DNA of 24,000 bases from Candidatus Saccharimonadales bacterium (GCA_046350635.1 JAXLZY010000001.1:154727-178726); one strand, 5' to 3'. Positions 927-17,502 are shown, counted from the stretch's first letter. Notes: generated by a model from the letters alone, not told the origin. A program made the numbers and translations.

Positions 927-934
927 CAATCCTC

Positions 935-1641: not shown

Positions 1642-1649
1642 GAATACTA

Positions 1650-2147
1650 TTATGATACCTGTTTAGATAAGAAGGATGCCACAAATCTAACAATTTGGGA
1701 TGCGAGCAGGGCAATCACCAAACCAATGATGGCATTTAGTATAGTTTTACGGGCAGAAACAATTTTGTTGGGCTCGCCCTGAGAAACAACAAAACTAAAA
1801 CCACCGTAAATTACAAACCCAACAGCCACAACAGCCGAAAGACGAATTAATATATCCGTAATCGCTAATAAAATTAAAAATATTATCTTAAGCCCATCTC
1901 CGTCAGCCGGCTTAGTCTGAATTTCACATCCGGTATCCGTTTTAACTACATCTAAATATTCATACCAGGTCGGAATGCCAAATATAGTTGTTTTTTTGCC
2001 GCAGGTTGCATCTGCAGCGGCCTGTGCCGCAGCTGTTGCAGAATCTGCCGGAGGCTGTGGGGCGGCATAGGCCGAAACAGGTACAATGACTGCGTAAAAC
2101 ATAAAGAAACCAGCTAACACAAAACTTACGGGTAAGAACCGCTTCAT
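1650..2147 (-). CDS. VirB2/TrbC-like T4SS pilin paralog P2
   Basis: The track ORF extends to 2174, but the second ATG (2145-2147) is preceded by a perfect AGGAGGTG with a 7-nt spacer. It yields a clean signal peptide (MKRFLPVSFVLAGFFMFYAVIVPVSAYAA) and forms a TAATG overlap with the stop of the upstream gene. It has a Cys pair (DATCGKK...DTGCEIQ) and the conserved hairpin VVAVGFVIYGGFSFVVSQGEPNKIVSARKTILNAIIGLVIALLASQ. Confidence 0.8.
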   Translation of the reverse strand: MKRFLPVSFVLAGFFMFYAVIVPVSAYAAPQPPADSATAAAQAAADATCGKKTTIFGIPTWYEYLDVVKTDTGCEIQTKPADGDGLKIIFLILLAITDILIRLSAVVAVGFVIYGGFSFVVSQGEPNKIVSARKTILNAIIGLVIALLASQIVRFVASFLSKQVS

Positions 2148-2737
2148 TAGAACGCACCTCCTGGTATTAACCATTGCAAGAACGCATACAAAAATATAAA
2201 TGCGGCAAGCCCTAATACGACATTTGCAATTCGTGTTTTAGCCGCCTGAACAGCTTGTGGATTATCGCGAGCAGCCGAATATTGTAACCCTCCAACAATA
2301 ATCATTAGCACTGCCCCTATACCTATAATTCCTGCAAAAATATTAATCGCCACTTTGAGCCACGTGATAATCGGGTTGTTATCCGTTGAATATTTCTCTG
2401 AGTTTGGATAAATACTACCAACGGTAACAGATTGGGCAACCGCAACTGGTTTAACAAGAACTTTTGTTTTGTCTTTGGCGCAAGCAGTATTCGTTTTACA
2501 TACTGCTGTAATGTATTTTTTATACGCGGCTTGGCCACACGCGGTATCATCAGCTGCACACTTTGCGACATCGGCAACATAGGTTGCACACTTGGCATAA
2601 TACGGCTCCTTAAGGCTTGCGCAATAATCTGTGCCATTTTCTGGAGCAGGAGCGGCCTGTGCCGTAACGCCAACCATAACGAAAAATGCAAACGTCAGCG
2701 GTGCGAGTAGGATATATTTTAATGCTTTTTTATTCAT
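2147..2737 (-). CDS. VirB2/TrbC-like T4SS pilin paralog P1 (largest, six-Cys head; first gene of the pilin operon)
   Basis: 196 aa with signal peptide MNKKALKYILLAPLTFAFFVMVGVTAQAA. Six Cys lie in an Ala/Lys-rich head (DYCASLKEPYYAKCATYVADVAKCAADDTACGQAAYKKYITAVCKTNTACAKD). The hairpin is more divergent but recognisable: IFAGIIGIGAVLMIIVGGLQYSAARDNPQAVQAAKTRIANVVLGLAAFIFLYA. Confidence 0.7.
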   Translation of the reverse strand: MNKKALKYILLAPLTFAFFVMVGVTAQAAPAPENGTDYCASLKEPYYAKCATYVADVAKCAADDTACGQAAYKKYITAVCKTNTACAKDKTKVLVKPVAVAQSVTVGSIYPNSEKYSTDNNPIITWLKVAINIFAGIIGIGAVLMIIVGGLQYSAARDNPQAVQAAKTRIANVVLGLAAFIFLYAFLQWLIPGGAF

Positions 2738-2882: not shown

Positions 2883-5726
2883 ATGCTTCGCAATCTAAAA
2901 CAAATAAAATACCGTGTTGGCCTACCGATAATCGCTTTGGTCTTTTTCTTAGTAAGCGTCATTCCGGCAGTGTATACCAGTTACTACGCTTCGGCCGCAA
3001 CGGGCTCAAAAAATGATATCGACCAGCGTGTTTTTGCATTTCAAGCATATGTCACTATGTCGGATGGTAGTTGTGTTTGGGAAGATAGTGGCATATTTAC
3101 TGACGCCTCAACCTGGATGCAGACTTCTTGGAGTAGCCAGCGAAACAAAAATGTACCAGTAGGCACCGTGTTTAATCGCCAGGTTGCTAGAACCGGGGGT
3201 GAAGGCGACATTAACTGTGACAATATGAATGGCTGGGTAGATAAGGCTGTTACAGTTTGGGGGTTTGCGAGCACTAAAGAGTTCTTGGACAAGCTTGTTA
3301 CAAATGGTGGCCTCACGTTTAATAATGGTGAATATTCAAAAGTTGGCGACAAAGAAATTGAAGCCGCTATCAAAAAAACTCTACAAGCAACAACATTTTT
3401 TAGTGGCTCAGACTTAGGCGCATTATCTAAAGACGAGTTTTACTACGATGCGCTTATTAATTTTCAAGATACCTGTAGCGTCTCTTTCTCTAGCTCAGAC
3501 GCAAAGCTCAACGGAGATGATCGTGTATCAGCAAAAACGAAAAAGGTTGAGGCCGATGGCACGGTAACAGAAGGATATTGGCATTTTAGTGGAAAAGGTA
3601 CCAAGAGTGTTGGTACCGCCTTGAAACCCGGTGAGGGTACAGCAGACTGTGAAGAACTTGCATCCATGGTAAGCAGGGCAGAATATGTAGATGCATACAT
3701 AAAGTACGTGAAAGATGGTGGCACACCTCCGTCAGATGGCAGTACGGGTAGTGGCCCGGGCGCAGGAACGGCCTGCACGCAAATTATTAATCCACTTACC
3801 TGGATACTTTGCCCAATCCTTGATCTTGCAGATGGGCTGTACGGCGTGTTCACCTCATTTATTCAATCAATGCTTACTGTACAAGAATCGCTGTATGATT
3901 CAGAACAACTAAAAGCCTCTTGGGCTGCTATGCGAAATATTGCTTCATCGCTTATCGTGATTGTTGCGCTAATAATGATTGCCAGCCAAGTATTTAATTT
4001 TGATTTTCTAAGTGCCTACACAATCAAAAAGGTTTTACCGCGACTTATTATTGCAGCTATCGCTATTCAGCTATCGTGGTTTATCTTTACGACAATAATT
4101 ACGGTCATTAACGCTATAGGGCTTGGTATTTATTCGCTTATGCTGGCGCCGTTCGGGCTCAATGGTGGGGGCGGTGATATTGTTGACCTACTTGGAACAC
4201 AAAGCGAAGGCGCGAAATTATTTAGTGGCACACTAATTGCAGTTGGCGCCGGTGCGGGCTTTATTGCAGTCGGAGGCCTGGCCGGTATCGTAGCAGCTGC
4301 TATTGCTGTTGGATTTGCACTTGTAATGGCTGTGGCGACCCTAATTTTACGCAAAATGCTTATTATCGCTCTTCTCGTGCTTGCTCCACTTGCACTTGTG
4401 GCATGGATTTTGCCGGGTACACAAAAATACTGGACTACTTGGTGGAATCTATTTATACGGTTATTGTTTATGTTCCCGTTAATTATGATTCTTATCGCGA
4501 GCGGTAAGATTTTTGCAGCATTACTCGCCCAAAGTGGCGCTGGCTATGCGGTAGAGCAAGGAATAAAACCATTAATCATTATTATTGCCTACTTTATTCC
4601 ACTGTTCCTAATACCGGCGACATTTAAATTCGCTGGTGGAATATTTGCCACCGTATCAGGAAAGATGAGTAGCTTCGGCAAGCAATGGGGCAAGCAAAGT
4701 GGAGATCTTGCCAAAGGTAAAACCATTGAAAGTGTTGGCCGCTTAGCACGTAATAGGAATAATAGATTCACCAGAGGACTTAATTACGCTTCTCATGGAG
4801 CAGTCACATCCAGGCAAAGATCAAGAGCCGCAGAAACAAGTCGCGCAGCCATTCATGAACGTGAAAAAAACTTTCAGGCACTTGTTGAAGCTAGAACAGC
4901 AGGCATGGATCGTGGTCGTAAGCACGCCGAATTACTCGATATAATTAACAACGGTAGCGAAGATATGGCAGAGGGAGCAGCTAGGATTTTAGCCGCGGAG
5001 CGTGGCTGGAATCAAATGGATAATTTAAACGCTAGGGGGCTCCATAGAGTTAGGGAGATTGCTGCCAATGATCCAACAGGTTTCGGTAGCTCACTATGGT
5101 CTTCCAGAAGAGATATTGCAGATGGTCCTGCGGATAGAATAAGTACGATGAGTGCAAATGATGCTGCAGGCCAACATAGTTCATTCTTTACTGCTGGTAA
5201 CGTTAATCAGCTTGACCCAAGAACTGCGGCTGATTTAACTAGAAACCAAACTCTTATGTCAGCACTTAATGCTGACACTCAAGAGCTAATATACCAACGT
5301 GCTGGGATACCTAATCCTATAGCTGGTGGTGGGGGTAATCCTGCCAGAGGTGGAGCTCCTGCCCCTGCCGCTGGTGGTGGTGGCGCTCCTGCTGGTGGAA
5401 ACCCTGCTGCCGGTGGAGGTAATAGAGGTCAAGCTGGTGGAAACACTCCGCCACGAGTCATCAATTTAACACAGGGTACAACTGGCGCTGGGACTACCGG
5501 TGCAGCTACAATGTTACACACAGCAAGTAATGTTCAAACTCAAATTAATAATGCTGGGGGCATGAGTTCTCTTAGTTCAGAAGAGGTTATTGATATCTAT
5601 AATCATGCCGATCGAAACTGGAGAAATGATACTGAAGGTACCCAGATTGGCCTCGATGCAATTGATGAACTAAGAAATCGAGGCATCTTACCACCATCTA
5701 ATAATGGTCCGACGACAGGCCCGTAA
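2883..5726 (+). CDS. VirB6/TrbL-like polytopic membrane protein with large extracytoplasmic N-domain and long cytoplasmic tail
   Basis: 947 aa. An N-terminal anchor (LPIIALVFFLVSVIPAVY) is followed by a roughly 300-aa Cys-containing soluble domain. A block of about 7-8 hydrophobic helices spans aa ~350-590 (e.g. LIVIVALIMIASQVF, LIIAAIAIQLSWFIFTTIITVINAIGLGIY, IAVGGLAGIVAAAIAVGFALVMAVATLIL, LIIALLVLAPLALVAWIL, LIIIIAYFIPLFLIPA). This is typical of TrbL/VirB6 and the Gram-positive PrgH/TcpH class. The basic tail contains a Gly/Ala/Pro low-complexity stretch (aa 813-856). The family call rests on topology and gene context only. Confidence 0.6.
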   Translation: MLRNLKQIKYRVGLPIIALVFFLVSVIPAVYTSYYASAATGSKNDIDQRVFAFQAYVTMSDGSCVWEDSGIFTDASTWMQTSWSSQRNKNVPVGTVFNRQVARTGGEGDINCDNMNGWVDKAVTVWGFASTKEFLDKLVTNGGLTFNNGEYSKVGDKEIEAAIKKTLQATTFFSGSDLGALSKDEFYYDALINFQDTCSVSFSSSDAKLNGDDRVSAKTKKVEADGTVTEGYWHFSGKGTKSVGTALKPGEGTADCEELASMVSRAEYVDAYIKYVKDGGTPPSDGSTGSGPGAGTACTQIINPLTWILCPILDLADGLYGVFTSFIQSMLTVQESLYDSEQLKASWAAMRNIASSLIVIVALIMIASQVFNFDFLSAYTIKKVLPRLIIAAIAIQLSWFIFTTIITVINAIGLGIYSLMLAPFGLNGGGGDIVDLLGTQSEGAKLFSGTLIAVGAGAGFIAVGGLAGIVAAAIAVGFALVMAVATLILRKMLIIALLVLAPLALVAWILPGTQKYWTTWWNLFIRLLFMFPLIMILIASGKIFAALLAQSGAGYAVEQGIKPLIIIIAYFIPLFLIPATFKFAGGIFATVSGKMSSFGKQWGKQSGDLAKGKTIESVGRLARNRNNRFTRGLNYASHGAVTSRQRSRAAETSRAAIHEREKNFQALVEARTAGMDRGRKHAELLDIINNGSEDMAEGAARILAAERGWNQMDNLNARGLHRVREIAANDPTGFGSSLWSSRRDIADGPADRISTMSANDAAGQHSSFFTAGNVNQLDPRTAADLTRNQTLMSALNADTQELIYQRAGIPNPIAGGGGNPARGGAPAPAAGGGGAPAGGNPAAGGGNRGQAGGNTPPRVINLTQGTTGAGTTGAATMLHTASNVQTQINNAGGMSSLSSEEVIDIYNHADRNWRNDTEGTQIGLDAIDELRNRGILPPSNNGPTTGP

Positions 5727-5737
5727 ATGAGTAGTGT

Positions 5738-6874
5738 ATGGCTGTATATAAAGTAATACAAGATATTGAGGCAGAAGATAAACTCCTTGGGCCATTAACT
5801 CTCAAACAGTTTATCTTTGCGGTTATTTCTGCTGGTTTTGTGTTTGTAGCTTTTATTGCTGTTTCAAAACTTGGCAATATATTAGTTGCTATACCGTTTT
5901 TACCTTTTATCTTAGTATTCGGCGTACTAGCCGCACCACTTGGGCGCGATCAACCAACAGATGTGTGGTTGGCGGCTCAAATTCGTTTTTTTACCAAACC
6001 CCGCAAGCGCATTTGGGATCAGTCTGGTATTAAAAACTTAGTTACCATTACCGTCCCTAAAAAGATAGAAAAGATTTATACCGATGGCTTAAGCCAGCAA
6101 GAGGTTAAAAGCCGTTTGCAAGCGCTCGCCGAAACAATTGATAGCCGCGGCTGGGCCGTAAAAAACGTCGCCGTTAATATGTATGCTACCCCAGCCTATG
6201 CAATGGCGTCTGACCGCCTTGTCGACCCTTCAAGCTTGCCACAAGCCGTACCGACAACTGATATAACAGCAGCCGATGACATCATGGATGCAACCTACAA
6301 CCCGGTAGCACAACATTTTGATCAAATGGTACATGATGCTACTACGGCGCAAAAGAATGCTGCAATCGCACGAATGCAGCAGGCGATGGCAAGCCCTCAA
6401 GCTCCACCGCAAACAAACCAACAAGCCCCGGTTGACCCTTGGTTTATACATCAACCAGACCCGTCTGCAGTACCGCAAAATAGTGCAATGTTTAGTGCTC
6501 AAACCGTTGCTCCTGTAGCTGTAGCTACACAACAACCAGAAGATGGGTTTTTGTCTGAACACACCGAACAACCATCGTCGCCAGAAGAGGCCGAGTTACT
6601 CGAACATATAAAAGCCGAAAAACAGCAAGAGCATCAAGGTTGGGCACATCACAAGACTATTAAAACACCCGAAGAAGTCGCAGCCGAAGAAGCGGACCAA
6701 AAACAAAAAGAGCTAGAAGAAAAAGCAAAACAAGCACAAGCGGTGACACCCCCTAAAAACCCTGGTATAGTAGAACTTGCAAATACTAACGATCTTAGTG
6801 TGGCAAGCGTAGCGCAACTTGCGAAACGAAACAGCCAGAATGACGACGGAGAAGTTGTTATTAAACTGCACTAG
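5738..6874 (+). CDS. PrgI/VirB3-like small T4SS membrane protein fused to a ~230-aa disordered C-terminal tail
   Basis: The N-terminus AVYKVIQDIEAEDKLLGPLTLKQFIFAVISAGFVFVAFIAVSKLGNILVAIPFLPFILVFGVLAAPLGRDQPTDVWL matches the PrgI-family pattern as I remember it. That pattern is a conserved DIE..DK..G.LTL.Q motif followed by two TM helices. The gene sits immediately upstream of the VirB4 genes, as VirB3 analogues do. The remainder is Q/P/A/E/K-rich low complexity. Confidence 0.65.
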   Translation: MAVYKVIQDIEAEDKLLGPLTLKQFIFAVISAGFVFVAFIAVSKLGNILVAIPFLPFILVFGVLAAPLGRDQPTDVWLAAQIRFFTKPRKRIWDQSGIKNLVTITVPKKIEKIYTDGLSQQEVKSRLQALAETIDSRGWAVKNVAVNMYATPAYAMASDRLVDPSSLPQAVPTTDITAADDIMDATYNPVAQHFDQMVHDATTAQKNAAIARMQQAMASPQAPPQTNQQAPVDPWFIHQPDPSAVPQNSAMFSAQTVAPVAVATQQPEDGFLSEHTEQPSSPEEAELLEHIKAEKQQEHQGWAHHKTIKTPEEVAAEEADQKQKELEEKAKQAQAVTPPKNPGIVELANTNDLSVASVAQLAKRNSQNDDGEVVIKLH

Positions 6875-6894: not shown

Positions 6895-7764
6895 GTGTGC
6901 GTCGCTATGCGCGATATGAATCCAGATACACAAGGCACTATTCCTAATCAATATTCTCAGCCCGGTATACAACCGGGTGGCTATTCTCAACCGCAAAATT
7001 CGGGCGTACCGCCTCAGCAGCAAGCACCTGTAGCCCCCGTTAAATCTAACCCAAATAGTACCCAAAACACACTGCTCATTAACGAAATCCGCGATGGCGT
7101 CGTTATTATGAGTGATGGCTCGTTTAGGTCGGTTGTCATGCTTAAAAGCATTAACTTCGACCTTATGAGCCCGCAAGAGCGTGAAGCAGTAGAGTATTCA
7201 TACCAGGGTTTTTTAAACTCACTGTATTTTCCGGTTCAAATATTTGTACGTTCACAAAAAGTTGACCTTGGGCCATATCTAGATAAGCTTGTTAAAATTC
7301 GTGGCGAACACGACAATATGCTACTTGCCATGTTAATGGATGATTACATTAATTTTATGGACAATTTAGCCGCGCAAACCAATATTATGGACAAAAAATT
7401 CTATGTTGTTATTCCGTACTTTCCTAATGTCGATACCCAAAAAGCCGTGCAGGCAAGTAAAAGTTTATTCTCGGGCTTATTTGGCCAAAAAGAACAAGCA
7501 ATTACTATCAACGAAGGTGACCTAGAAGCGGCAAAAACAGAACTCCGTAATCGCGTGCAGGCAGTGCTTAACGGCCTCATGCAGTGTGGGGTACAGGGCC
7601 TACCACTCGATACCCAAGAACTTATAGAACTTTACTACGATGCCTATAACCCTGATACGGCCACACGCCAACAGTTAAAAAACTTTAGTGATTTAACAGC
7701 GCCAGTAATAACAAAGGGCGAAGGCCAAGCCTATCAGCCTAACCTTGATAGGGAGATGAACTAA
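6895..7764 (+). CDS. VirB4 N-terminal-module-like protein (separately encoded), with Q/P-rich disordered head
   Basis: The ordered part is LLINEIRDGVVIMSDGSFRSVVMLKSINFDLMSPQEREAVEYSYQGFLNSLYFPVQIFVRSQKVDLGPYLDKL...NIMDKKFYVVIPYF. It resembles the extreme N-terminal region of Firmicutes-type VirB4 proteins (Tn916 Orf16/TcpF/ConE class), from my memory of the alignments. Its stop overlaps the VirB4 ATG (TAATG at 7762-7766). The start is uncertain: 6895 is a GTG, and in-frame ATGs lie at 6907 and 6916. Confidence 0.5.
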   Translation: MCVAMRDMNPDTQGTIPNQYSQPGIQPGGYSQPQNSGVPPQQQAPVAPVKSNPNSTQNTLLINEIRDGVVIMSDGSFRSVVMLKSINFDLMSPQEREAVEYSYQGFLNSLYFPVQIFVRSQKVDLGPYLDKLVKIRGEHDNMLLAMLMDDYINFMDNLAAQTNIMDKKFYVVIPYFPNVDTQKAVQASKSLFSGLFGQKEQAITINEGDLEAAKTELRNRVQAVLNGLMQCGVQGLPLDTQELIELYYDAYNPDTATRQQLKNFSDLTAPVITKGEGQAYQPNLDREMN

Positions 7765-9668
7765 TGGCTGTCTTTGGTGGTAAACAACCCAAAATTGACC
7801 CAGTGCTAATGGCTGAACAGCAACGAGCACTCGAACAGCAAGAGGTTCAGGCGGCATTCCAAAAGGGTGTAACAGCACTCCGAGATTTTATCGCACCAAG
7901 TTCCATCGAATTCCAGAGTAACTTCTTTCAAATTGGTACCCGTTATGCCCGCACCTACTACGTCTATGGCTATCCACGCCAAATCTACACTGGCTGGTTA
8001 AGCGGTATGGTTAATATCGATGAAGTGATGGATATGTCAATCTATGTCTATCCGGTAGAGAGCCAGGTTGTACTCGAGAATTTGCGCAAAAAAGTAGGTC
8101 AGCTCGAAGCCGGTTTACAGATTGACGCCGAAAAGGGTAAGGTCCGTGACCCAGGTAAGCAAGCTGCCATTATGGATGCCGAAGAGATGCGCGATAAGCT
8201 TCAGGTGGGCGAAGAACGATTCTTTAGGTTTGGTCTGTACTTTACGATCTACGCAAGCTCAATGGATGAGCTCGAATTTGTAAGCCATAAAATTGAATCT
8301 ATGCTCGGCCAACAGCTCGTGTACTCAAAACCAGCTAGTGCCCAGCAAGAGCAGGGGCTTAACAGCGTTTTGCCCCAGTTTATGGATCAGCTTCAAATTC
8401 GCCGCAATATGAATACCGGTGCTATTAGTACTAGCTTTCCGTTCACGAGTGCCGACTTAACAGATGACCACGGCATTTTATACGGCATAAATATGCACAA
8501 TAGTGGCCTCGTTATTTTTGATAGATTCAGCCTAGAAAACGGTAATAGTGTTGTGTTCGCTAAATCCGGTGCTGGTAAAAGTTTTGCGGTTAAGTTAGAA
8601 ATTTTGCGTAGCCTCATGATGGGCACTGAGGTTTTTGTGTTAGACCCAGAAAACGAATACCAACGCATGGCCGAAGCAGTCGGTGGTGCCTATGTAAAGC
8701 TTTCGCTTGGTTCACCAACACGAATTAATCCATTTGATTTACCTCGAGTTGTAGATACCGAAGAAGCTGATAACGCCTTGCGCAGTAACCTCATTACACT
8801 CCATGGCTTATTGCGCCTCATGATGGGTGGAGCTCAGGCACAACTGCTTGGCAATGCAGGGCAAATGGCACCAGCGCTTAGCCCCGTAGAAGAAGCCGAT
8901 TTAGATGCCGCACTTATAGAAACCTATGCCAAGGCAGGCATCACTAATGACCCGCTTACGCACACAAGTGTTCCGCCGACAATCAGCGACCTGTACGATA
9001 CCTTATTACATATGGGCGGAACAGGCCCGCAACTGGCGCAACGACTCCGCAAATACACAACCGGTACCTTTGCGGGTATTTTTAGTCAGCAAAGTAATAC
9101 CGATATCAATAATCCTTTTGCGGTCTTTAACATTCGTGACTTAGAAGATGAGCTAAGGCCGGTAGCTATGTATATTGTTCTTAACTTTATATGGAACAAA
9201 ACTAAGGCAGATCAAAAGCGTCGCATTTTAGTAATAGACGAAGCCTGGCAATTTATGAAGTACGAAGATAGCGCCAGCTTTATCTTTAGCCTCGCAAAAC
9301 GTGCCCGTAAATATAACCTTGGTATCACTACTATCAGCCAAGACGTAGAAGACTTTATTGGGTCGCGCATGGGTCGCGCAATCGTTGCTAACGCTTCAAT
9401 GCAGCTACTCTTAAAACAAAGCCCAACTGCTGTCGACATGCTCGCAGACGTATTTAAGCTAACGAGCGAAGAAAAGAAACGCTTAAGCCAGTTCCCTGTC
9501 GGGCAAGGACTGTTTTTTGCGGGCCAAAGCCACGTACATATCCAAATTATGCCTAGCCCAACCGAAACAAGTCTTATCACAACCAACCCCGAGCAAGTCA
9601 AAGCTATTGAGCAACAGGGTCAGATACCGCTATCAGGTAACGCGACCGGCGAAATTAACGGATTTTAA
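7764..9668 (+). CDS. virB4: VirB4-family T4SS ATPase (TraE/PrgJ-like)
   Basis: 634 aa. Walker A is FAKSGAGKSFAVK (Lys codon 8577-8579) and Walker B is RRILVIDEAWQF (Asp-Glu 9237-9242). Downstream motifs are ARKYNLGITTISQDVEDF and ANASMQLLLKQ. The N-domain pattern is YARTYYVYGYPRQIYTGWLSGMV...DMSIYVYP. GGGAG lies 8 nt upstream of the ATG. Confidence 0.9.
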   Translation: MAVFGGKQPKIDPVLMAEQQRALEQQEVQAAFQKGVTALRDFIAPSSIEFQSNFFQIGTRYARTYYVYGYPRQIYTGWLSGMVNIDEVMDMSIYVYPVESQVVLENLRKKVGQLEAGLQIDAEKGKVRDPGKQAAIMDAEEMRDKLQVGEERFFRFGLYFTIYASSMDELEFVSHKIESMLGQQLVYSKPASAQQEQGLNSVLPQFMDQLQIRRNMNTGAISTSFPFTSADLTDDHGILYGINMHNSGLVIFDRFSLENGNSVVFAKSGAGKSFAVKLEILRSLMMGTEVFVLDPENEYQRMAEAVGGAYVKLSLGSPTRINPFDLPRVVDTEEADNALRSNLITLHGLLRLMMGGAQAQLLGNAGQMAPALSPVEEADLDAALIETYAKAGITNDPLTHTSVPPTISDLYDTLLHMGGTGPQLAQRLRKYTTGTFAGIFSQQSNTDINNPFAVFNIRDLEDELRPVAMYIVLNFIWNKTKADQKRRILVIDEAWQFMKYEDSASFIFSLAKRARKYNLGITTISQDVEDFIGSRMGRAIVANASMQLLLKQSPTAVDMLADVFKLTSEEKKRLSQFPVGQGLFFAGQSHVHIQIMPSPTETSLITTNPEQVKAIEQQGQIPLSGNATGEINGF

Positions 9669-9724: not shown

Positions 9725-10663
9725 ATGCTTTTAATGTTTTCTTCGAAAAATTCCTACGCAGATACAAAAGCTAACAAGCGAGTGGCTGCTGGTGCGATGA
9801 TACTCGCAGGGGCACTAGCCTTAGCTGGCTGCGGAAACTCTGATAATAATGCCCCGTCATCACCAAACACACAGCCCGTTGCTACTGCGACCCCCTCAAC
9901 CCCAGAAAGTCCAACAGAGACGCCATCAGTAAGCCCAACTACTTCACCTGAAAACGTTGTGCTACAATTCGATACTGATAAATTACCCGTAACCCCCAAA
10001 AATTATTCCGAAGCTCGCGAAACATTAGAATTTCTTATCGATAAACAAGTAGACAAAAACCTTCGATCTAAATTATGGGATGCAATCGAATCAAATAACG
10101 CCGAATATTTCAATAAACTTAGTATTTCTAAAGAAGATGTTGAAGCAAATCTTCAGTATTACGAAGAATACCTAAAAACATTGGATATAATCGCAGACCA
10201 ATTCAGCGAAACTCCTGAAGCACGCATACCCATAAAATCGAATCGCCTCATGGGCGAAAGTATGGTTATTGTGTTACGAGAACTTCTGTCGAGAAACGAT
10301 ATTGTTTCTAAATTGCAAGACAAAGCATCTGATATAAATGTAACTACTTTTTCTAAAAGAACTCGGGTGGATAATTCACCTATTACATCAGTTGCATTTA
10401 CAATTGCAAAAGTTGGCAAAGATCCCGAAGCTTGGAGCGCAGGCTACCATAACGAAGACGGCTCATTAAAAGTAATAACCGACGACATGATAATCGTGCA
10501 AGAACAGTTAAAGTTCAATCCAGCATCAGATTCAATGCAGTCAGAAGTACTTTCTCGAATTGTATATACCACTGTTAACAAGCTCGGCTCACTATGTATT
10601 GCAAAGCTTAGTGGTTTCGATACACACTGTGACGCACAAGTTGCAACCCATTTTGCTGAATAG
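9725..10663 (+). CDS. Lipoprotein of unknown function (T4SS-associated by context)
   Basis: Lipobox LALAGC with the Cys codon at 9830-9832, preceded by KANKRVAAGAMILAGA. A Pro/Thr/Ser-rich linker (PSSPNTQPVATATPSTPESPTETPSVSPTTSPE) precedes a ~230-aa domain I do not recognise. An alternative ATG at 9734 has AGGA 8 nt upstream. Confidence 0.7.
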   Translation: MLLMFSSKNSYADTKANKRVAAGAMILAGALALAGCGNSDNNAPSSPNTQPVATATPSTPESPTETPSVSPTTSPENVVLQFDTDKLPVTPKNYSEARETLEFLIDKQVDKNLRSKLWDAIESNNAEYFNKLSISKEDVEANLQYYEEYLKTLDIIADQFSETPEARIPIKSNRLMGESMVIVLRELLSRNDIVSKLQDKASDINVTTFSKRTRVDNSPITSVAFTIAKVGKDPEAWSAGYHNEDGSLKVITDDMIIVQEQLKFNPASDSMQSEVLSRIVYTTVNKLGSLCIAKLSGFDTHCDAQVATHFAE

Positions 10664-10742: not shown

Positions 10743-13700
10743 ATGCCAAATGCTGTTTATGACGATGAGAAGGAGCGCACGGCTAATCCTGATTCTAGCC
10801 TTGTTAATGATAGCAACGAAACAGCTCAAACGGCATCTGATTCATCTTCGGATACAAACTTAGCTGATAAAGAATCAGATGCCGCAAAAAACGATACGTT
10901 TGACGAACCGCCAACAGCTGAAAAAAGTTTTTATAACCCAATGGGCGATAAGCAAAATTCACTCAAGTCTTCATCGACTTCAATCGTTTCAAATATAGCA
11001 AGACGGCGCGTAATATTAGGTGCCCTAATTCCAATAGGTCTAATTCTTATTGTTCTTTTTTTGATGAGTGCCCTTAAAATTCCAAACTACGCCGCAAATA
11101 TTGCAACCTATAGATTCGCTCGCTCAGCGATGGAATATGCTAAAACATCGTCAGAGATTGATGGAGCAAAAATTGCCATAGAAACAAGCGATGATACAAA
11201 ATACGGCAAATTCAGAGAAAAGTACGCAAATCTAAGATCAGCAACGTGGGGGAAGTTTGATCAGTACCGACCAGAAAAGGTGTATCAAAACCTTAAGGCA
11301 GACGGAACGATAAAGTACGAGGTAGAAACCAAAAAATGGAAGGGAATCGAAACCCGTACAAAAATCACAGCGGTTATTATTAATAACGAACGAATTCCCG
11401 TAGAAAGCCAAACATTCAGACAACGTTTTGGGAGCCCAGTAGACTCTTACAGAGATAGGTTGAAGTATTCTAGGGCAGTTAATGCACAAATTAGTGAAGC
11501 GTTAAAGGGTTCTAGTACACTCGTAAGAAGCTCGGTGGCCAAAAAAATACGTGCAGATTTAAATATTAAGCTACGATTTTGGGAAAAGGGTGCCAAAAAC
11601 TATAGTGGCCTTAAGCCAGATGAAGCCGACCAATTGTTACTTAAAGAAAATGACGAAAGAATACGCACCAAACCAACTGGCACGGCAACAACGAGCTCAA
11701 TAAACGAAGCGACCGATAAAGTAGACAATGCTATCAAGGACTGTATTGACGATGCCGACTGTGCCAAGGAGATGGCGAGTGGTGAAAACCCAGAAAAAAT
11801 AACCACCGCATTAACAGAATCTGCCGACGAAGGCATTGTAAGAAAAGCTCTTGGTATTATTAGCCCAACATACGGGATTGTTGTGCCTGCTTGTATGATT
11901 TACGATGGCTCGATTGATCACGCATCTGATGCAATCGATGCGCAAACTGCCAGCACCATTAAAACCTACAACACATTTGCAACTCAGGCTGACCAGCAAA
12001 AAGTCGGAGACACCTCTCCAGAGGCGATAGCTGCCGTCAATAGGAAATTAGCGGCTGGTGATTCGGTTCCCGATCAATACCTAAGTGGGCGCACGGTTGA
12101 TACATCTGTAGAAAAAAGCCCGCAAGCATCGGTGCTTGGCGACTTTACAATGTTAAACGCTTTAATACCAAATCAAACCGTGGCAAATGGTTTAAATACT
12201 ATCGCAGAGCCAGTATGTAAAACCTTAACCAATGTAGGAGTTAATGCAGCTATTGCTGGAGTGAGCATTGTAATAGCTATCTTTACTGGCGGGACAAGTG
12301 GTGCCGCTGAAGGTGCCGGAAGTCAAAGTATTCGCGCCATTGTCACCGCAACCCTAGAAAAAGGCTTTCTTAAAACGATAGTTAAATCAGCAGTTGATAA
12401 GGTTGCGACAATTGAAGGCAGAAATCAACTTAAGGGTTTTAGTAAGAAATTTGCTCGAGATTTTGTGGCTATAGAAGGAGCTACCGCTCTCACAAAACTA
12501 TTAGTAATGTCACGTTCAGGGCTTATAAATAATGGCGCTACATCAAGTGGTGCTGACTATATTAATCAGGCAGATATGGGTGCGGTAAACGAAAACAACA
12601 TCTATATGCAACAAATGATGTATGGTGCACCAATGACGAATGCAAACACCGCACTTGCCGATAAAAGCGCAACAACTTTATTAGCAGAAAAAGAGTCCCA
12701 GGCTCCGGGGCTTGGCAAGTATTTTGGGATTACTTCACCCGTTTCAAAAATCAGAAACAATATGGCTATTGGCTTTGCGAGTATGAAGCAAAGGGGACTA
12801 TCATCAAGTTTGAAATATTTCAGTTTTGGCTCGGTCTTAAAGTCGATTATTCCAAATCAAAATGTGAGTGCCGCAGACACCTCAGGAGCAAACTGGGGCA
12901 TCGTTCAATGGGGTTGGACAGACGAAGAAAACGCTTTAATTGCCCGCGATTCATCGTATGGGGTAGTTGAAAATGAAGCTGCATTATCCGATCAAGTTCG
13001 TAGTGTGGTAGAGTCAGAATATGGTAAGTGTTTTTCAAGTACTATGGGCACCTTGCTTGGTTCGGGTGACATTAAAAGAAATGAGTCGGGGGATGTGGTA
13101 ACAAATGACGGTTTGTGTTCGCCAGAAAACCTCGGCCCAAAGAACCCTAAGTACGGCGATGCGGTATTTAGGTGGCGTCTTTCTAAAAAGCGCGAGATGG
13201 TATTAGATCAAAACCTTGGGCTACAAAACCCATCAAAAGATGGTAAAAGCGATAGTGGTGGAACTGTAGGTGGTGGCGGGAGTTCGGGTGGTCAAGGCAT
13301 GAGTGCCGACGAGGTTTTTGCGCAATGTAAAAACAATACCGCAACCGGCAAAGTAAAAATTGTTTGCGGGACCACCGAACTAAATGGGGTACCCTACGGA
13401 GAAAACTTCGTAAGCGCCTGGAAGGATGCTAAGCCATCTCCGTTAGGTTGTAATTCATACGCCAATATAGCAATTGCTCGTGCAACGAACGGAAAATATC
13501 GCAAAGATTATTGCTCGGGTGGATACGAAAAAGAAGGTGCGCGTGAAGGTAATTTCAAAAAAATCGCCAAAACTGCCGTTCAACCCGGAGATTTAATCAT
13601 TCACGACCGCTTGGGTGGTGCGTCATGTGGTGGCACGAGTGGAGAGGGCCACGTTGAAGTTGTTGTTTCGTACGATCCCAAAACCGACAAACTTATTACT

Positions 13701-13808
13701 ACAGGAGCCCACAGTTCAAGAACACCGTCAGGTGTCACCGATCCGGTTAACCTCAAGAATAGTGACTATTGGGATTACGGCGTTGAGTATGTCGGAGGTG
13801 GCTTGTAA
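10743..13808 (+). CDS. Large membrane-anchored protein with C-terminal CHAP/NlpC-P60-like cysteine peptidase/amidase domain (PrgK/TraG/Orf14-like cell-wall hydrolase or effector)
   Basis: 1021 aa. An acidic disordered N-terminus is followed by a TM helix (VILGALIPIGLILIVLFLMSAL) and ~740 aa that I cannot assign. A Gly-rich linker (GGTVGGGGSSGGQG) leads to the last 170 aa (nt 13296-13805). That region has a candidate catalytic Cys (PLGCNSYANIAI, codon 13449-13451), PGDLIIH, and GHVEVVVSYDPKTDKLITTGAHS. The order is the Cys...PGD...GHV...(polar) order typical of CHAP domains. Confidence 0.65.
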   Translation: MPNAVYDDEKERTANPDSSLVNDSNETAQTASDSSSDTNLADKESDAAKNDTFDEPPTAEKSFYNPMGDKQNSLKSSSTSIVSNIARRRVILGALIPIGLILIVLFLMSALKIPNYAANIATYRFARSAMEYAKTSSEIDGAKIAIETSDDTKYGKFREKYANLRSATWGKFDQYRPEKVYQNLKADGTIKYEVETKKWKGIETRTKITAVIINNERIPVESQTFRQRFGSPVDSYRDRLKYSRAVNAQISEALKGSSTLVRSSVAKKIRADLNIKLRFWEKGAKNYSGLKPDEADQLLLKENDERIRTKPTGTATTSSINEATDKVDNAIKDCIDDADCAKEMASGENPEKITTALTESADEGIVRKALGIISPTYGIVVPACMIYDGSIDHASDAIDAQTASTIKTYNTFATQADQQKVGDTSPEAIAAVNRKLAAGDSVPDQYLSGRTVDTSVEKSPQASVLGDFTMLNALIPNQTVANGLNTIAEPVCKTLTNVGVNAAIAGVSIVIAIFTGGTSGAAEGAGSQSIRAIVTATLEKGFLKTIVKSAVDKVATIEGRNQLKGFSKKFARDFVAIEGATALTKLLVMSRSGLINNGATSSGADYINQADMGAVNENNIYMQQMMYGAPMTNANTALADKSATTLLAEKESQAPGLGKYFGITSPVSKIRNNMAIGFASMKQRGLSSSLKYFSFGSVLKSIIPNQNVSAADTSGANWGIVQWGWTDEENALIARDSSYGVVENEAALSDQVRSVVESEYGKCFSSTMGTLLGSGDIKRNESGDVVTNDGLCSPENLGPKNPKYGDAVFRWRLSKKREMVLDQNLGLQNPSKDGKSDSGGTVGGGGSSGGQGMSADEVFAQCKNNTATGKVKIVCGTTELNGVPYGENFVSAWKDAKPSPLGCNSYANIAIARATNGKYRKDYCSGGYEKEGAREGNFKKIAKTAVQPGDLIIHDRLGGASCGGTSGEGHVEVVVSYDPKTDKLITTGAHSSRTPSGVTDPVNLKNSDYWDYGVEYVGGGL

Positions 13809-14368
13809 TGAATGCGTTGCAAATTCTTATTAAATATAAGGTGCTAATTATTAGTTTGTTCACCTTTATTTTAATAACATTCATTGTATTTAAATTTGCC
13901 CCAGTGACGGTTGTAAATCCTGAACCAATTAATAATATGTATATAAATAATGTTCATGCCGAGGCTTTAAAGGTAAGTACAACATCGGGGAAAAAACGAA
14001 TCGGATTTAGTAATCCCACAACTGTATATAAAGAAGAAACTGTTTTCTTATGGCCGTTCCAGACATATACTCCTAAATATTCTGGTGAAAAGCAGAATAC
14101 TGCATCTATATTAAAAGAGTCTGGATACACAGATATAGCTGAATATCCATTTATTTCAGAGAAGTATTTTTCACAAAATAGATGGTTGGTAGTCTACGAA
14201 AAGAGTAGCGGTGGCTTTGACACAACGCGGGTTGTGGGTGTATTAAAATACAGCTCAAAATCTGGATTATGGGAAGTGGTCGATCGCAGCTCAAGCCTAC
14301 ACGAGGACTGGTGGGATAGCATAATGCCAGACGAGATATTAAACTACATAGAAAACGGTGGTAGGTAG
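13808..14368 (+). CDS. Small N-terminally anchored protein of unknown function (candidate immunity or VirB8-like component)
   Basis: 186 aa with a TM anchor (VLIISLFTFILITFIVFKF) and a ~150-aa extracytoplasmic domain. There is a strong GGAGGTG 7 nt upstream, and the ATG overlaps the upstream stop (TAATG at 13806-13810). It is AT-rich: my hand counts of three 60-nt lines give about 28-37% GC. Confidence 0.6.
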   Translation: MNALQILIKYKVLIISLFTFILITFIVFKFAPVTVVNPEPINNMYINNVHAEALKVSTTSGKKRIGFSNPTTVYKEETVFLWPFQTYTPKYSGEKQNTASILKESGYTDIAEYPFISEKYFSQNRWLVVYEKSSGGFDTTRVVGVLKYSSKSGLWEVVDRSSSLHEDWWDSIMPDEILNYIENGGR

Positions 14369-14369
14369 C

Positions 14370-16985
14370 ATGGCTATCTTGGGTTTACTTGGATTTGAAG
14401 CAATAAATAGACGTCGGCTATTGCGTTCGTTTGTATTACTTTTTGTTCTATTCGGCTTTATCTTCTCAACGTTATATTCACAAATATCGTACGCACAAGG
14501 TATAACAGTGAGTGATCTTAACGCCATACTCGAAAAACATCCAAACTATGACCCTAATGCGACTGATTGCCAAAACGTAACCCCAGCACTTCAAACAGTA
14601 ACAACAAATAAATCTGTGTATGTAATTGGTGATTCTTACCTTAGGGATTCAGCCACACTACTTACAACCAGCTTAAAAGCATCTGGTTACGAGACGGTAA
14701 CAATCAATGGTCATGGTGGTCGTGGTATTAACCGACCTGCAAACGATGGTGCGCCCGCAGCTTTAACCGCCATCGAGCAAGATAAAGATAAAATTGCATC
14801 TGCAGGTACGATAATTATTATTCTAGGTACGAATCCTTCTGACGCAGCAACTCCACCAGGTCCAATTAATGCTTACGATTCTTCAATACCTGTTTTTATG
14901 AAAAAATTAACTGGCTATAATGCTCAAGCTCGTATTTTCTGGGTTAATACTGATCACCTTGATACTCAGAGAACGGTATTAATTAAACCAACAAACACAG
15001 CCATCGAAAAATACTCGAGTCAGTTTTCGTATAAAGTTGTCGATTGGTATAGCGCTTTAGAAAAAACTACTAAAAAACAGTACTTAGACCCTTCTTCAAG
15101 CTACCTACACCCAAACACGACAAAAGGGTATCCACTTTTTGTAGACACAATTAAAGCGAGTGTGGGCAGTCCTATTACCTCATACCAAGACTCCTCAAAC
15201 GCACCGTCGGTAGCTAGCAACTCAGTAAACCTTAAATTATTGACAGATGTACAGGAAAAAAATAAACCAAATGTCCCTATTATCTGGAATTGGCTCCGCG
15301 CAAAAGGATTTAGTGAGGTTCAGACTGCCGGAATTATGGGTAATATTTATCAAGAAAGTAAGTTCCAGATAGACCTTTGGGATCCACCTGCATACGGCTT
15401 AATTCAATGGCAACATGAACGCCTAGATCAATTAAAAAAGTTTGCCTCTAATCGTAATATTCCTCTTGATAATATCGATACCCAGATGCGTTTTATGATG
15501 ACCGAGTTAACGAGTAAGACTGGTCGATTTTATGAACCGGTTTATCTACCACTGAAAAAGACTACCGATTTAGCGACAGCAGTTAATTTAATGCTTGAGC
15601 ATTACGAAGAGCCAGGGGATTACGAAACCGAGCGCCCATTACGACTTAAGTGGGCAAAAGAAGTACTAGAAACTATGGGTGGAAGTGCCGTTTCAACACC
15701 CACTCCAGCACCAACTGATGGAAAAACAAATTGTGCCCCCGTGACAGGTAATTCCTGTGAGTCAATTTTGCTTCCGACAATTATCGACCCCAGTAAGTTG
15801 GGAAGTGCCATAGATAAGTATATTAGCGATGTCAGTAAATCATATAACGGCAAAAAATCACCATTTGACGGCCTTGGTTCAAAGTTTGTAGAAGGGGGTA
15901 TTAAATCGGGTATTAATCCATTTATCGCAGTGGTTCACGCACACAAAGAATCTCTTTTTGCACTGTATGATGCAAAGGGTTGGCATAACTATACGTTCGC
16001 AACTAAAGAAGCTGCTGCGGCTGGGAATACCGCTCAGCTTTCTCCTTCGTATAATGCCTATGGTCGGTCTGCGGGCGGTGATCAGCCGACTGTTTGGTAT
16101 AACGGAAGTAATGGTCCACGCCCCGTCTATAAGTGGTCTTCTTGGGAAAATAGCTTAACGGGTGATGATAGTTTCTTTGCGTATTACAAACGCAAATGGG
16201 TAGACGAAAAAAAATACACCTCTATAGACGACATCATTAAAGAATACGCGCCAGCATCCGATGGCAACAACCCCTCAGAATACGCTTCTTTTATGCATAA
16301 TAATATTTCAAAACTAATCTCACTTGCCGGCGATTCTATCGACTGTGGTAGTGGTGGAGCTGGTGCCGGTGGTTCTGGTGGCACAAAACTTGACGGTAAA
16401 GAAACTGTAAAACTTCAATATGGGTACTACGTTAAAGATGGGGGTGATCCGAAGATGATTTACTATAGCCAATACGACGCTAGATATAATGGCGCAGAAG
16501 GTAAGAAGATATACCCCAGCTATGACAGAACAGATCTAGGACCTTTTGGCCAGTGTGGATGTTTTTCAACCAGTATGGCGATGGCAATAAACACAATCGG
16601 AGCCAATAAAAACATTAATCCTCTTGATATCGGAAAAGAAGTGCTAGCGGCCGGCGTCAACGCAGGTGGTTGTGGGTACAGTGGCGAATCTGGCTTTGGT
16701 GAAAAACTTGGTCCAAAATTTAATGTTTCGATTAAGTCTACAAACTCATTCACGGTTGCAAAACAAGGTTTACGTGATGGCGGATTGGTTGTGTTAAGTG
16801 TTGGACCTTCTGAGTTTACGACGGGAAGTCACTATATAGTTTTAAGAGGTTTGACGAGTGATGGTAAATTTGCTGTTGCTAATCCAACAAACAAAGACCA
16901 GACACTAACTGGTACATACACTGAAAGCCACATAAGTAGTATCTTTAATGGTAGCGGAAAGATGTGGGTAGTAAGTGCTAAGTGA
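14370..16985 (+). CDS. Four-module secreted/anchored peptidoglycan hydrolase (SGNH esterase + phage-tail-lysozyme-like + GH73 glucosaminidase-like + C39-like cysteine peptidase)
   Basis: The track start 14358 is a GTG inside the previous gene. The ATG at 14370 follows GGTGGTAGG, so I prefer it. Residue numbers below use track numbering. N-terminal TM: FVLLFVLFGFIFSTLY. Module 1 (aa ~86-265): VYVIGDSY, NGHGGRG, ILGTNPSD, YLHPNTTKGY (SGNH blocks). Module 2 (aa ~305-437): TAGIMGNIYQESKF...YGLIQWQHERLDQLKKFA...DTQMRFMMTEL...LEHYEEP (phage tail lysozyme family pattern). Module 3 (aa ~475-655): INPFIAVVHAHKESLFA...NAYGRS...FFAYYKRKW (GH73-like). A Gly linker (GSGGAGAGGSGG) leads to module 4 (aa ~683-875): YYSQYD...GQCGCFSTSMAMAI...GSHYIVLRGLTSDGKFAVANP (Peptidase_C39-like pattern). 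Confidence 0.7.
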   Translation: MAILGLLGFEAINRRRLLRSFVLLFVLFGFIFSTLYSQISYAQGITVSDLNAILEKHPNYDPNATDCQNVTPALQTVTTNKSVYVIGDSYLRDSATLLTTSLKASGYETVTINGHGGRGINRPANDGAPAALTAIEQDKDKIASAGTIIIILGTNPSDAATPPGPINAYDSSIPVFMKKLTGYNAQARIFWVNTDHLDTQRTVLIKPTNTAIEKYSSQFSYKVVDWYSALEKTTKKQYLDPSSSYLHPNTTKGYPLFVDTIKASVGSPITSYQDSSNAPSVASNSVNLKLLTDVQEKNKPNVPIIWNWLRAKGFSEVQTAGIMGNIYQESKFQIDLWDPPAYGLIQWQHERLDQLKKFASNRNIPLDNIDTQMRFMMTELTSKTGRFYEPVYLPLKKTTDLATAVNLMLEHYEEPGDYETERPLRLKWAKEVLETMGGSAVSTPTPAPTDGKTNCAPVTGNSCESILLPTIIDPSKLGSAIDKYISDVSKSYNGKKSPFDGLGSKFVEGGIKSGINPFIAVVHAHKESLFALYDAKGWHNYTFATKEAAAAGNTAQLSPSYNAYGRSAGGDQPTVWYNGSNGPRPVYKWSSWENSLTGDDSFFAYYKRKWVDEKKYTSIDDIIKEYAPASDGNNPSEYASFMHNNISKLISLAGDSIDCGSGGAGAGGSGGTKLDGKETVKLQYGYYVKDGGDPKMIYYSQYDARYNGAEGKKIYPSYDRTDLGPFGQCGCFSTSMAMAINTIGANKNINPLDIGKEVLAAGVNAGGCGYSGESGFGEKLGPKFNVSIKSTNSFTVAKQGLRDGGLVVLSVGPSEFTTGSHYIVLRGLTSDGKFAVANPTNKDQTLTGTYTESHISSIFNGSGKMWVVSAK

Positions 16986-17502
16986 TAAACTCAAACAACT
17001 ATCGGACGAGCAAAAAAAACAACTGCTAATTATCGGTGTGGTGATTCTTGTAATACTGTTTTTTGGAGTTATCGGATTCACGAGTGGCTCTGGGAATAAT
17101 AATACAAGTGTAAAAAAAGATGCTTATGGCGATTTAATCGAAACTAAGATTTCTGGTCAACCAATAGAATCAAAAGACGACACTTTTGTTATACGATTTA
17201 ATGATTTTCTTACAAATAACGTATCACCCCTACAGCTTGATGCACTTAAAAAATCAATTAGGTTTTATATATGGGACACTATAAATAGTGATGAGACTAA
17301 GGCTGTTTTTGACGATGGTAAATTTGAATCTCAGGGTGAATCTAGTATCTATACGGTGACAGTAAGAACAAACAACAATACTACAAAATTTACAATTAGA
17401 ATGAAGATAGATAATAAACTAAATATTGTGTCTGCGACTGCGGATTACAATGGAGTATCGACAGATTTATCAGTCACTCCAAGAACGACTAACCAAGACT
17501 GA
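16975..17502 (+). CDS. Small N-terminally anchored protein of unknown function (second candidate immunity or VirB8-like component)
   Basis: 175 aa. The GTG start overlaps the upstream gene by 11 nt, and there is no in-frame ATG before the TM helix. The TM anchor is LLIIGVVILVILFFGVIGF, followed by a ~130-aa Asn/Thr/Asp-rich domain. It is AT-rich: sampled 60-nt lines give about 28-38% GC. Its 3' end overlaps the convergent recF by 14 bp. Confidence 0.55.
   Translation: MLSDKLKQLSDEQKKQLLIIGVVILVILFFGVIGFTSGSGNNNTSVKKDAYGDLIETKISGQPIESKDDTFVIRFNDFLTNNVSPLQLDALKKSIRFYIWDTINSDETKAVFDDGKFESQGESSIYTVTVRTNNNTTKFTIRMKIDNKLNIVSATADYNGVSTDLSVTPRTTNQD

Follow-up and report, generated by a model that had tools for sequence, protein, structure and literature searches.

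The hydrolase gene and its locus

We analysed a stretch of 24,000 nucleotides from a Candidatus Saccharimonadales bacterium (GCA_046350635.1, JAXLZY010000001.1:154727-178726), the whole of which is called the window here. A gene for a four-module cell wall hydrolase is encoded in it within a type IV secretion system (T4SS) gene cluster, as is expected of a VirB1-type enzyme. A short note made by a model from the sequence alone, hereafter the original prediction, had treated the gene as part of a T4SS locus, and this was borne out because five pilin genes, a PrgI gene and a VirB4 gene lie upstream and gene junctions in the hydrolase region overlap (Table 1). The claim of four distinct wall-directed modules in one polypeptide also stood: from the N- to the C-terminus these are an SGNH domain (module 1), a Phage_lysozyme2 domain (module 2), a GH73-like domain (module 3) and a C39-like cysteine peptidase (module 4), each with predicted catalytic residues and apparently active. 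The candidate catalytic residues are conserved, being invariant in 17/17, 19/19, 151/151 and 22/22 relatives of modules 1 to 4, respectively.

A chromosomal T4SS of Saccharibacteria has been described in Southlakia epibionticum, where it comprises SEML1_0006-0019, adjoins recF and is essential for epibiotic growth (PMC10633639); Saccharibacterial T4SSs have no recognisable relaxase and coupling protein (PMC10633639; PMC12857230). The genes SEML1_0006 and SEML1_0007 adjoin VirB4 and recF (PMC10633639) and both are essential by transposon sequencing (Tn-seq); SEML1_0006 (643 amino acids, aa) was annotated with Glucosaminidase, Phage tail lysozyme and 'Cysteine proteinases' domains, and SEML1_0007 (1113 aa) with a C-terminal DD-peptidase domain (PMC10633639 Tables S1/S2). 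Since the window hydrolase occupies the same place in the same chromosomal T4SS locus, it is the positional orthologue of SEML1_0006.

Table 1. Genes and domains of the T4SS locus in the window. Positions are counted from the first letter of the window; residue numbers of the hydrolase are those of its 875-aa frame (counted from ATG 14370 they are lower by 4).
Feature	Positions	Strand	Remarks
Five tandem VirB2-like pilin genes	501-2737	-	142, 133, 101, 174 and 196 aa; T4SS_pilin in all five, E 1e-13 to 2e-6
947-aa protein	2883-5726		No Pfam match
PrgI/VirB3-like T4SS protein	5738-6874	+	PrgI, E 2.4e-10
289-aa protein			Between the PrgI/VirB3-like and VirB4 genes
VirB4-type T4SS ATPase	7764-9668	+	P-loop_TraG, E 9e-28
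312-aa protein	9725-10663		Between VirB4 and the 1021-aa protein; without family assignment
1021-aa membrane/exported protein	10743-13808	+	Positional orthologue of SEML1_0007; C-terminal ~170 aa (13290-13805) NlpC/P60-like
186-aa protein	13808-14368	+	Between the two hydrolase genes; no Pfam family
Four-module hydrolase	14370-16985	+	Stop codon included; 871 aa from ATG 14370
Candidate N-terminal export signal	14370-14495	+	Read from the sequence: basic RRR, 17-aa hydrophobic stretch, SYA/QG
Module 1, SGNH-fold esterase/acyltransferase domain	14598-15185	+	aa 81-276; Ser93 in GDS, Arg122 in GGRG, Asn159 in GTN, His251 in LHP
Module 2, Phage_lysozyme2 domain	15255-15692	+	aa 300-445; Glu333 in QES; GLIQW motif
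Module 3, divergent GH73-like (glucosaminidase-type) domain	15765-16337	+	aa 470-660; Glu531 in KES, N566-x-Y-G-R, Tyr630 in YAPASDGN
Module 4, Peptidase_C39_2 papain-like cysteine peptidase	16449-16982	+	aa 698-875; Gln705, Cys735, His825 and Asn842 candidates
175-aa protein	16975-17502	+	N-terminal hydrophobic segment; hydrolase gene overlapped at its 3' end; last operon gene before recF; no family
recF, dnaN and dnaA	17489-21335	-	Conserved housekeeping boundary of the T4SS locus

The longest open reading frame of the hydrolase gene begins at GTG 14358, ends at 16985 and would encode 875 aa. The original prediction had placed the start at ATG 14370, and these coordinates are right because ATG 14370 is the start in public gene calls, it is preceded by the Shine-Dalgarno-like GGTAGGTAG and the stop codon of the preceding gene lies 1 nt before it. 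The product is P0001 at 100% identity, which carries the NCBI name 'MAG: phage tail tip lysozyme [Candidatus Saccharimonadales bacterium]'. Its N-terminus may be a Sec signal peptide that is cleaved off, or else a signal anchor. A transmembrane anchor had been claimed; the hydrophobic segment is there, but the reading as an anchor holds only in part because SYA/QG resembles a Sec signal peptide at least equally well. At this position the homologues P0002, P0003 and P0004 have AYA/A, AHA/L and SLA/V.

The Pfam search with the whole hydrolase gave three matches, namely, Phage_lysozyme2, Peptidase_C39_2 and Lipase_GDSL_2, and Glucosaminidase was not among them; no SLT domain was matched in the hydrolase by Pfam. 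Thus, of the four families that had been named for confirmation by hidden Markov model (HMM), Phage_lysozyme2 and Peptidase_C39_2 are above their cut-offs, Lipase_GDSL_2 is below and Glucosaminidase is without a match. The word-indexed homologue search with the whole hydrolase gave 8 matches, and in the single-sequence PDB search with the whole protein phi29 gp13 was the only solved relative.

The four modules

Module 2 is matched by Phage_lysozyme2 (PF18013) over aa 308-440 with an E value of 2.6e-28 and 99.4 bits against the Pfam cut-off of 28.2. Its Glu333 aligns with Glu45 of phi29 gp13, which we take from structural work to be the catalytic residue of that enzyme, and Glu333, Ser334, Gln350 and Trp351 are invariant in 19/19 relatives. 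Among phage proteins, those matched by this module are tail lysins and tape-measure proteins from phages that infect Gram-positive bacteria.

Module 4 is matched by Peptidase_C39_2 (PF13529) over aa 702-843 (E 1.1e-9, 39.5 bits, cut-off 24), and Gln705, Cys735 and His825 are invariant in 22/22 relatives. The catalytic Cys had been placed in QCGC; this is right, and it can be specified as the second Cys, Cys735, which is the conserved one. When the family profile of module 4 was compared with the PDB, the best match was the pseudomurein endoisopeptidase PeiR (8z4h; E 6.5e-5) and C39 peptidases came next with marginal scores. Peptidase_C39_2 has been listed as a catalytic domain only in lysins of phages of Gram-positive bacteria (PMC8223927).

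In module 1, Ser93, Asn159 and His251 are invariant in 17/17 relatives, as is Gly157, and Arg122 is present in 16/17; the GDS and GTN blocks and the His are invariant across the alignment of 18 relatives. The single-sequence PDB search with the SGNH module alone gave nothing relevant. With the profile of 18 sequences the C-terminal SGNH domain of Staphylococcus aureus OatA (6wn9/6vjp) was found at E 9e-15, well ahead of other SGNH structures, and in the OatA alignment the GDS, GR, LGTN and H blocks of module 1 are in register. The AlphaFold2 model of module 1 has a predicted local distance difference test score (pLDDT) of 88.0. A Foldseek search with this model gave 98 PDB matches at E<=1e-3, and the 50 that were listed are all SGNH/GDSL proteins or scaffolds derived from them; among the matches listed the C-terminal domain of OatA has the highest identity (20%) and the highest target TM-score (0.77). 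The modelled fold of module 1 is that of SGNH proteins (flavodoxin-like alpha/beta/alpha). The homologues P0004, P0059 and P0114 pass the Lipase_GDSL_2 cut-off.

Module 3 searched alone against Pfam gave no match even at E<=10, Glucosaminidase (PF01832) included, and NCBIfam likewise gave nothing. Orthologues aside, its nearest relative is P0009 (38% identical across 97% of the length of module 3), an SLT protein that matches Glucosaminidase with a sub-threshold 26.8 bits (cut-off 30.2), and 20/27 of the relatives of module 3 match Pfam Glucosaminidase at E<=0.01. The profile of the 27 relatives found GH73 enzymes in the PDB, namely LytB with E 1.3e-6 and then the Atl glucosaminidase, Auto and FlgJ. 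Glu531 of KES coincides with the LytB residue that is Gln in 7pj4, the structure titled as the E585Q mutant. The AlphaFold2 model of module 3 has a pLDDT of 88.9, and the top 12 Foldseek matches in the PDB are all GH73 enzymes, the matches being weak (E 0.04-0.6, TM-score about 0.5). An exhaustive profile search gave 406 representative clusters, which appear to form a distinct subfamily; Glu531, Asn566 and Tyr630 are invariant in 151/151 aligned members and Tyr642 nearly so. Between the KES helix and NAYGRS lies an Ala-rich insertion of ~22 aa (..WHNYTFATKEAAAAGNTAQLSP.., about 15975-16040, aa ~540-561) that is found only in the window and L002 proteins and has a pLDDT of about 57. We have filed module 3 as a putative, divergent GH73-like subfamily and not as a verified member of GH73.

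Conservation of the hydrolase slot and shuffling of its modules

A scan of genome contigs yielded one related locus, so a VirB4-based metagenome survey was used: 80 metagenome loci were fetched by VirB4 alignment as an unbiased survey and added to the earlier loci, and 44 loci contain the complete interval from VirB4 to recF. In 44/44 of these, VirB4 is followed by a large protein (768-1286 aa), a slot protein (279-879 aa) in the place of the window hydrolase, a third protein and recF. Likewise, the order of VirB4, large protein, hydrolase, small protein and recF/dnaN/dnaA is kept in L001 and L006-L009. In L086 no slot protein of >=250 aa was found. L067 and L068, with an interval under 3 kb, were left out of the 44-locus set; in these two an open reading frame matching the RecF HMM starts within 4 nt of the end of VirB4, and this may reflect an absence of the hydrolase genes from that place, another arrangement of the locus or a false RecF call.

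The contents of the slot vary. In five loci derived from homologues the module sets are SGNH, GH73-like, Phage_lysozyme2 and C39; SGNH, Phage_lysozyme2 and C39; Phage_lysozyme2, SGNH and C39; SGNH, Phage_lysozyme2 and M23; and GH73-like and SLT, and the large protein of these loci ends in VanY, in M23 or in no recognised domain. Pfam domains were counted in 37 slot proteins (36 derived with VirB4, and the window protein). Phage_lysozyme2 was found in 23/37, Peptidase_M23, Peptidase_C39_2 and Lipase_GDSL_2 in 6/37 each, CHAP in 5/37, Amidase_3 and NLPC_P60 in 3/37 each, Glucosaminidase in 2/37, and Amidase_2 and SLT_2 in 1/37 each. The slot thus holds at least 10 hydrolase families, usually with one to three modules per protein, and the largest proteins of this set have at most three recognised modules. 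Our local HMMs for Phage_lysozyme2 and SGNH are less sensitive than Pfam, since they missed Phage_lysozyme2 in L001 and L006 and SGNH in L007, and because of these missed modules the architecture counts based on them are lower bounds.

That the four-module state is unique was ruled out, because P0002 (68% identical to the window protein), P0059 (SGNH-GH73-Phage_lysozyme2-C39), P0169 (GH73-SGNH-Phage_lysozyme2-M23) and probably P0146 also have four modules; it is rare. The order of the modules changes as well: it is SGNH-Phage_lysozyme2-GH73-C39 in the window and Phage_lysozyme2-SGNH-C39 in P0004, and P0059 and P0169 differ from both. The original prediction took the esterase placed ahead of the glycosidases as a sign of an ordered attack. 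This had to be given up: the order is not kept in P0004, P0169 and P0059, and since it varies in this way among relatives the first place of the SGNH module carries no mechanistic weight. In the relatives examined the SGNH module is always joined to lytic domains.

The window was also compared with its nearest genome, L002. The percent identity is 95 for VirB4, 93 for DnaA, 92 for DnaN and 83 for RecF, 68 for the hydrolase and 56 for the large 1021-aa protein, and 46, 31 and 30 for the 175-aa, 186-aa and 312-aa proteins, respectively.

The upstream large protein and the neighbouring genes

A fifth, CHAP-like module had been claimed for the protein upstream of the hydrolase. A fifth cysteine-peptidase module does appear to be present at the C-terminus of the 1021-aa protein, but it is NlpC/P60-like by transitivity and the direct CHAP assignment was dropped. 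The NlpC/P60 and CHAP families belong to the same Pfam clan. No direct match for the 13290-13805 domain was found in Pfam, the PDB profile search, PHROGs or precomputed Pfam data. An HMM of this domain matches the C-termini of slot hydrolases in L022 (8004-10112, aa 524-693, E 7e-15) and L064 (9040-10545, aa 312-494, E 1.5e-16) and also the C-terminus of the large protein in L063 (1761-4832, aa 855-1018, E 1.8e-14). The matching L022 region is Pfam NLPC_P60 with 27.0 bits (cut-off 23), and the candidate residues Cys903 and His970 of the 1021-aa protein are conserved in all five sequences. It is this transitive homology via L022 together with the conserved Cys and His that leads to the predicted NlpC/P60-like papain fold. 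The domain may be a divergent subfamily, its window copy escaping Pfam, PDB and PHROG searches and its relatives being marginal NlpC/P60 matches. It is also mobile, for elsewhere it ends the slot hydrolase instead of the large protein.

Among the other genes of the locus, the pilin array is of the kind reported essential in S. epibionticum. The 947-aa protein is probably a divergent extended VirB6, because at the same position L009 has a 992-aa TrbL_3 (VirB6-like) protein. The start of the 186-aa gene overlaps the stop codon of the 1021-aa gene at 13808, which suggests translational coupling of the two, and the positional equivalent of the 186-aa protein in L007 has a weak PEGA match. The third gene position, between the slot hydrolase and recF, is filled in 44/44 complete loci (e.g. 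L016 17027-18418 and L025 16384-17982) by proteins whose size varies widely, from about 150 to about 530 aa, the window protein having 175 aa; those with precomputed Pfam data have no match. The T4SS accessory proteins of 312, 186 and 175 aa evolve extremely fast compared with VirB4, DnaA and DnaN at 92-95% identity. Beyond dnaA, the window contains rnpA, yidC and jag.

Proposed function and alternative explanations

We propose, as the probable explanation of these findings taken together, that the hydrolase is the variable wall-cutting enzyme of the Saccharibacterial chromosomal T4SS locus. It would be exported by its N-terminal Sec signal, and its four modules would be brought to the peptidoglycan at the point at which the envelope is crossed by the T4SS with its pilus. 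There the OatA-related SGNH domain would most likely remove 6-O-acetyl groups from N-acetylmuramic acid, the very position at which its nearest solved relative works as a transferase, the phi29-gp13-type lysozyme-like domain would cleave the glycan strand, the GH73-like domain would cleave the other glycosidic bond and the C39-like cysteine peptidase would cleave stem peptides or cross-links. In this way the hydrolase, together with the NlpC/P60-like C-terminus of the 1021-aa protein, would open a hole in a thick wall. The target is most likely the wall of the Gram-positive host where the epibiont attaches, and the epibiont's own wall may be cut as well. Our preference for the host wall at the place of contact comes from the rapid divergence of the hydrolase, the lysin-like shuffling of its modules and the presence of domain families typical of phage tail lysins and of lysins of phages that infect Gram-positive bacteria, and we note that the fast divergence and the shuffling would point to the host wall only indirectly.

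Several points weigh against this proposal. The Sec signal peptide of the hydrolase is a candidate read from the sequence. No cell-wall-binding domain was recognised in the hydrolase. The match of module 1 to Lipase_GDSL_2 (aa 97-254) has an E value of 7.8e-5 and 23.7 bits, or 26.6 bits with the isolated module, and does not reach the Pfam cut-off of 32.9; the Asp of the catalytic triad (DxxH) is absent from its block V, which has SYLH instead (SSYLH, 15096-15110, aa 247-251); and its closest solved relative is a transferase and not an esterase. The putative GH73 assignment of module 3 is based on profile evidence (E 1e-6) and a weak fold likeness (Foldseek E 0.04). Tn-seq essentiality is compatible with either target wall and does not separate them. 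Local degradation of peptidoglycan by conjugative VirB1 enzymes is understood to act on the donor's own wall. Such VirB1-type hydrolases of Gram-positive conjugation degrade peptidoglycan locally and help the T4SS channel to assemble (PMC12102498).

A possible, though doubtful, alternative is that the hydrolase is a classical VirB1-type helper that remodels only the peptidoglycan of the Saccharibacterium itself for assembly of the T4SS channel and pilus and leaves the host wall untouched. The gene does lie in the T4SS operon downstream of VirB4, and the VirB1 role has been given to these proteins in the literature: Quinonero-Coronel et al. named 'peptidase and lysozyme homologues immediately downstream of virB4' as probable stand-ins for VirB1 (PMC12102498). 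In most Patescibacteria classes, the linkage between VirB4 and the canonical VirB1 profiles is poor (PMC12102498). The VirB1 proteins of Gram-positive bacteria are also multi-domain, with SLT and CHAP (PMC12102498). Against this, a slowly changing wall of its own would not explain why the slot is swapped among at least 10 hydrolase families and diverges far faster than VirB4 or the housekeeping genes, and two consecutive multi-hydrolase proteins would seem excessive for the thin wall of an ultrasmall cell.

A second alternative, which we consider unlikely, concerns the SGNH module only. Instead of being a peptidoglycan de-O-acetylase, it would be an O-acetyltransferase of the OatA-C/PatB type, which could, for example, keep the lysozyme modules of the cell from attacking the cell's wall, or an esterase whose substrate is a different acylated polymer of the envelope or a lipid. 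The best solved relatives of module 1 are indeed transferase domains (S. aureus OatA at the E value given above, then S. pneumoniae OatA and, more weakly, PatB), the Pfam model for SGNH fused to AT3 is a weak second match, the PHROG 'O-antigen acetylase' is a marginal match, and in S. epibionticum a stand-alone AT3/OpgC protein could be the donor. On the other side, no AT3 or MBOAT partner is fused to the module or adjacent in the window, its constant fusion to lytic domains fits a role in helping lysis, and the fold search returns many esterases at equal scores. The missing triad Asp is also gone from block V of P0002, P0003 and P0004 (GWLH, GGLH and RGLH); P0123 has ExxH and most other relatives have DxxH. 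Module 1 may be a Ser-His dyad enzyme or may have an altered activity. The original prediction had suggested an esterase that acts on an O-acetylated wall. The link to O-acetylated peptidoglycan is reasonable because O-acetyl groups of peptidoglycan are what OatA, the closest solved relative, works on; what was not upheld is the reaction's direction, since that relative is a transferase, although module 1 would be expected to function as an esterase rather than as a transferase.

It is also conceivable, but in our view very unlikely, that the hydrolase works apart from the T4SS, either as a general autolysin or as an exoenzyme for lysis or scavenging, in the separation of daughter cells or in the lysis of hosts or bystanders for wall sugars and amino acids, and that its link to the T4SS is merely genetic. 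All of its modules are generic wall hydrolases, its export would appear to depend on Sec and not on the T4SS, and Saccharibacteria rely on their hosts for building blocks (PMC10633639). The strict conservation of the position between VirB4 and recF in 44/44 complete loci and the overlap of the gene junctions with neighbouring operon genes argue against it. Finally, a prophage tail lysin remnant, as the NCBI name and the matches of module 2 to phage proteins might suggest, was rejected as next to impossible, because module 2, which makes up 16-21% of the protein, is the only part with phage matches and the neighbourhood has no phage genes, the locus being a conserved chromosomal T4SS that adjoins dnaA, dnaN and recF.

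The proposal of a T4SS wall-cutting enzyme can be carried further, and this we do only tentatively. The two hydrolase genes after VirB4 could be a cassette-like 'host-wall key' in which modules (SGNH, GH73, Phage_lysozyme2, C39, M23, CHAP, NlpC/P60, amidases and VanY) are swapped to fit the wall chemistry of the host, and in which, in this lineage, the OatA-derived SGNH domain would de-O-acetylate a host wall that resists lysozyme and thereby let the fused glycosidases open a port for the essential T4SS. If this is the case, then the host range of an uncultured epibiont should be predictable from its module content.

No T4SS before that of Saccharibacteria had been shown to be essential for the growth of its bearer (PMC10633639; PMC12857230). 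Its most tractable parts are the hydrolases whose genes follow VirB4, being soluble with predictable active sites. Because the slot is universal in the loci examined, its modules are exchanged in the manner of phage lysins and some lineages have added an OatA-related SGNH domain, it gives a handle on whether the host wall is breached and on what sets host specificity. The slot enzymes are also candidate lysins against Gram-positive bacteria with O-acetylated walls. We consider the result at the level of the locus, that is, a fixed slot with interchangeable lytic modules, to be of more interest than the four-module protein itself. The variable hydrolase slot was known already, having been noted in the literature through SEML1_0006; what is new is a protein of four modules with an OatA-related SGNH domain, and our literature searches found no published characterisation of an SGNH-containing T4SS hydrolase in Patescibacteria.

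Comparison with known systems

SEML1_0006 resembles the window protein in its place, which is after VirB4 and a protein of ~1000 aa tipped with a hydrolase domain and before recF/dnaN/dnaA, and in having GH73-like, Phage_lysozyme2 and cysteine-protease modules. It differs in having three modules in the order GH73-Phage_lysozyme2-cysteine protease and no SGNH domain, whereas the window protein has four, and the upstream partner ends in a DD-peptidase in S. epibionticum and in a putative NlpC/P60-like domain in the window.

The single modules have relatives in other systems. The N-terminal lysozyme-like domain of phi29 gp13 is homologous to module 2 with the catalytic Glu aligned, and modular lysins of phages of Gram-positive bacteria share with the hydrolase the design of a glycosidase fused to a peptidase, the shuffling of modules and the proposed breaching of a wall from outside. 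Unlike gp13, the hydrolase is not a phage gene product, its modules number four and not two, and it has no M23 domain, although its relatives have M23. Module 1 has its best solved sequence relative in the SGNH domain of OatA (S. aureus 6wn9/6vjp; S. pneumoniae 5ug1/5ufy). OatA has an AT3 membrane domain, whereas module 1 is without AT3 and is joined to lytic domains instead, and OatA has the triad Asp in DGIH where the window protein has SYLH. The GH73 N-acetylglucosaminidases LytB, AtlE, Auto and FlgJ match module 3 by profile and, weakly, by predicted fold, and the Tyr-containing C-terminal motif is kept. YATD is a motif of GH73. Module 3 differs from these enzymes in its YAPASDGN motif, in the ~22-aa insertion after the catalytic helix and in that the window sequence has no Pfam match.

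The T4SS hydrolases of Gram-positive mobile elements are the functional counterparts with which the protein was originally compared. PrgK additionally has a LytM domain. Like the window hydrolase, PrgK (pCF10), TraG (pIP501) and CwlT (ICEBs1) are encoded with a T4SS and combine glycan-cutting and peptide-cutting domains (PMC12102498). Their domains are SLT/lysozyme together with CHAP or NlpC/P60, and none of them has SGNH, GH73 or Peptidase_C39_2. The original claim that the module count here exceeds that of characterised VirB1 helpers agrees with the description of the VirB1 proteins of monoderm T4SSs as two-domain SLT and CHAP proteins (PMC12102498). PrgK, TraG and CwlT serve conjugation machines and act on the donor wall, whereas the Saccharibacterial T4SS serves epibiotic growth on a host.

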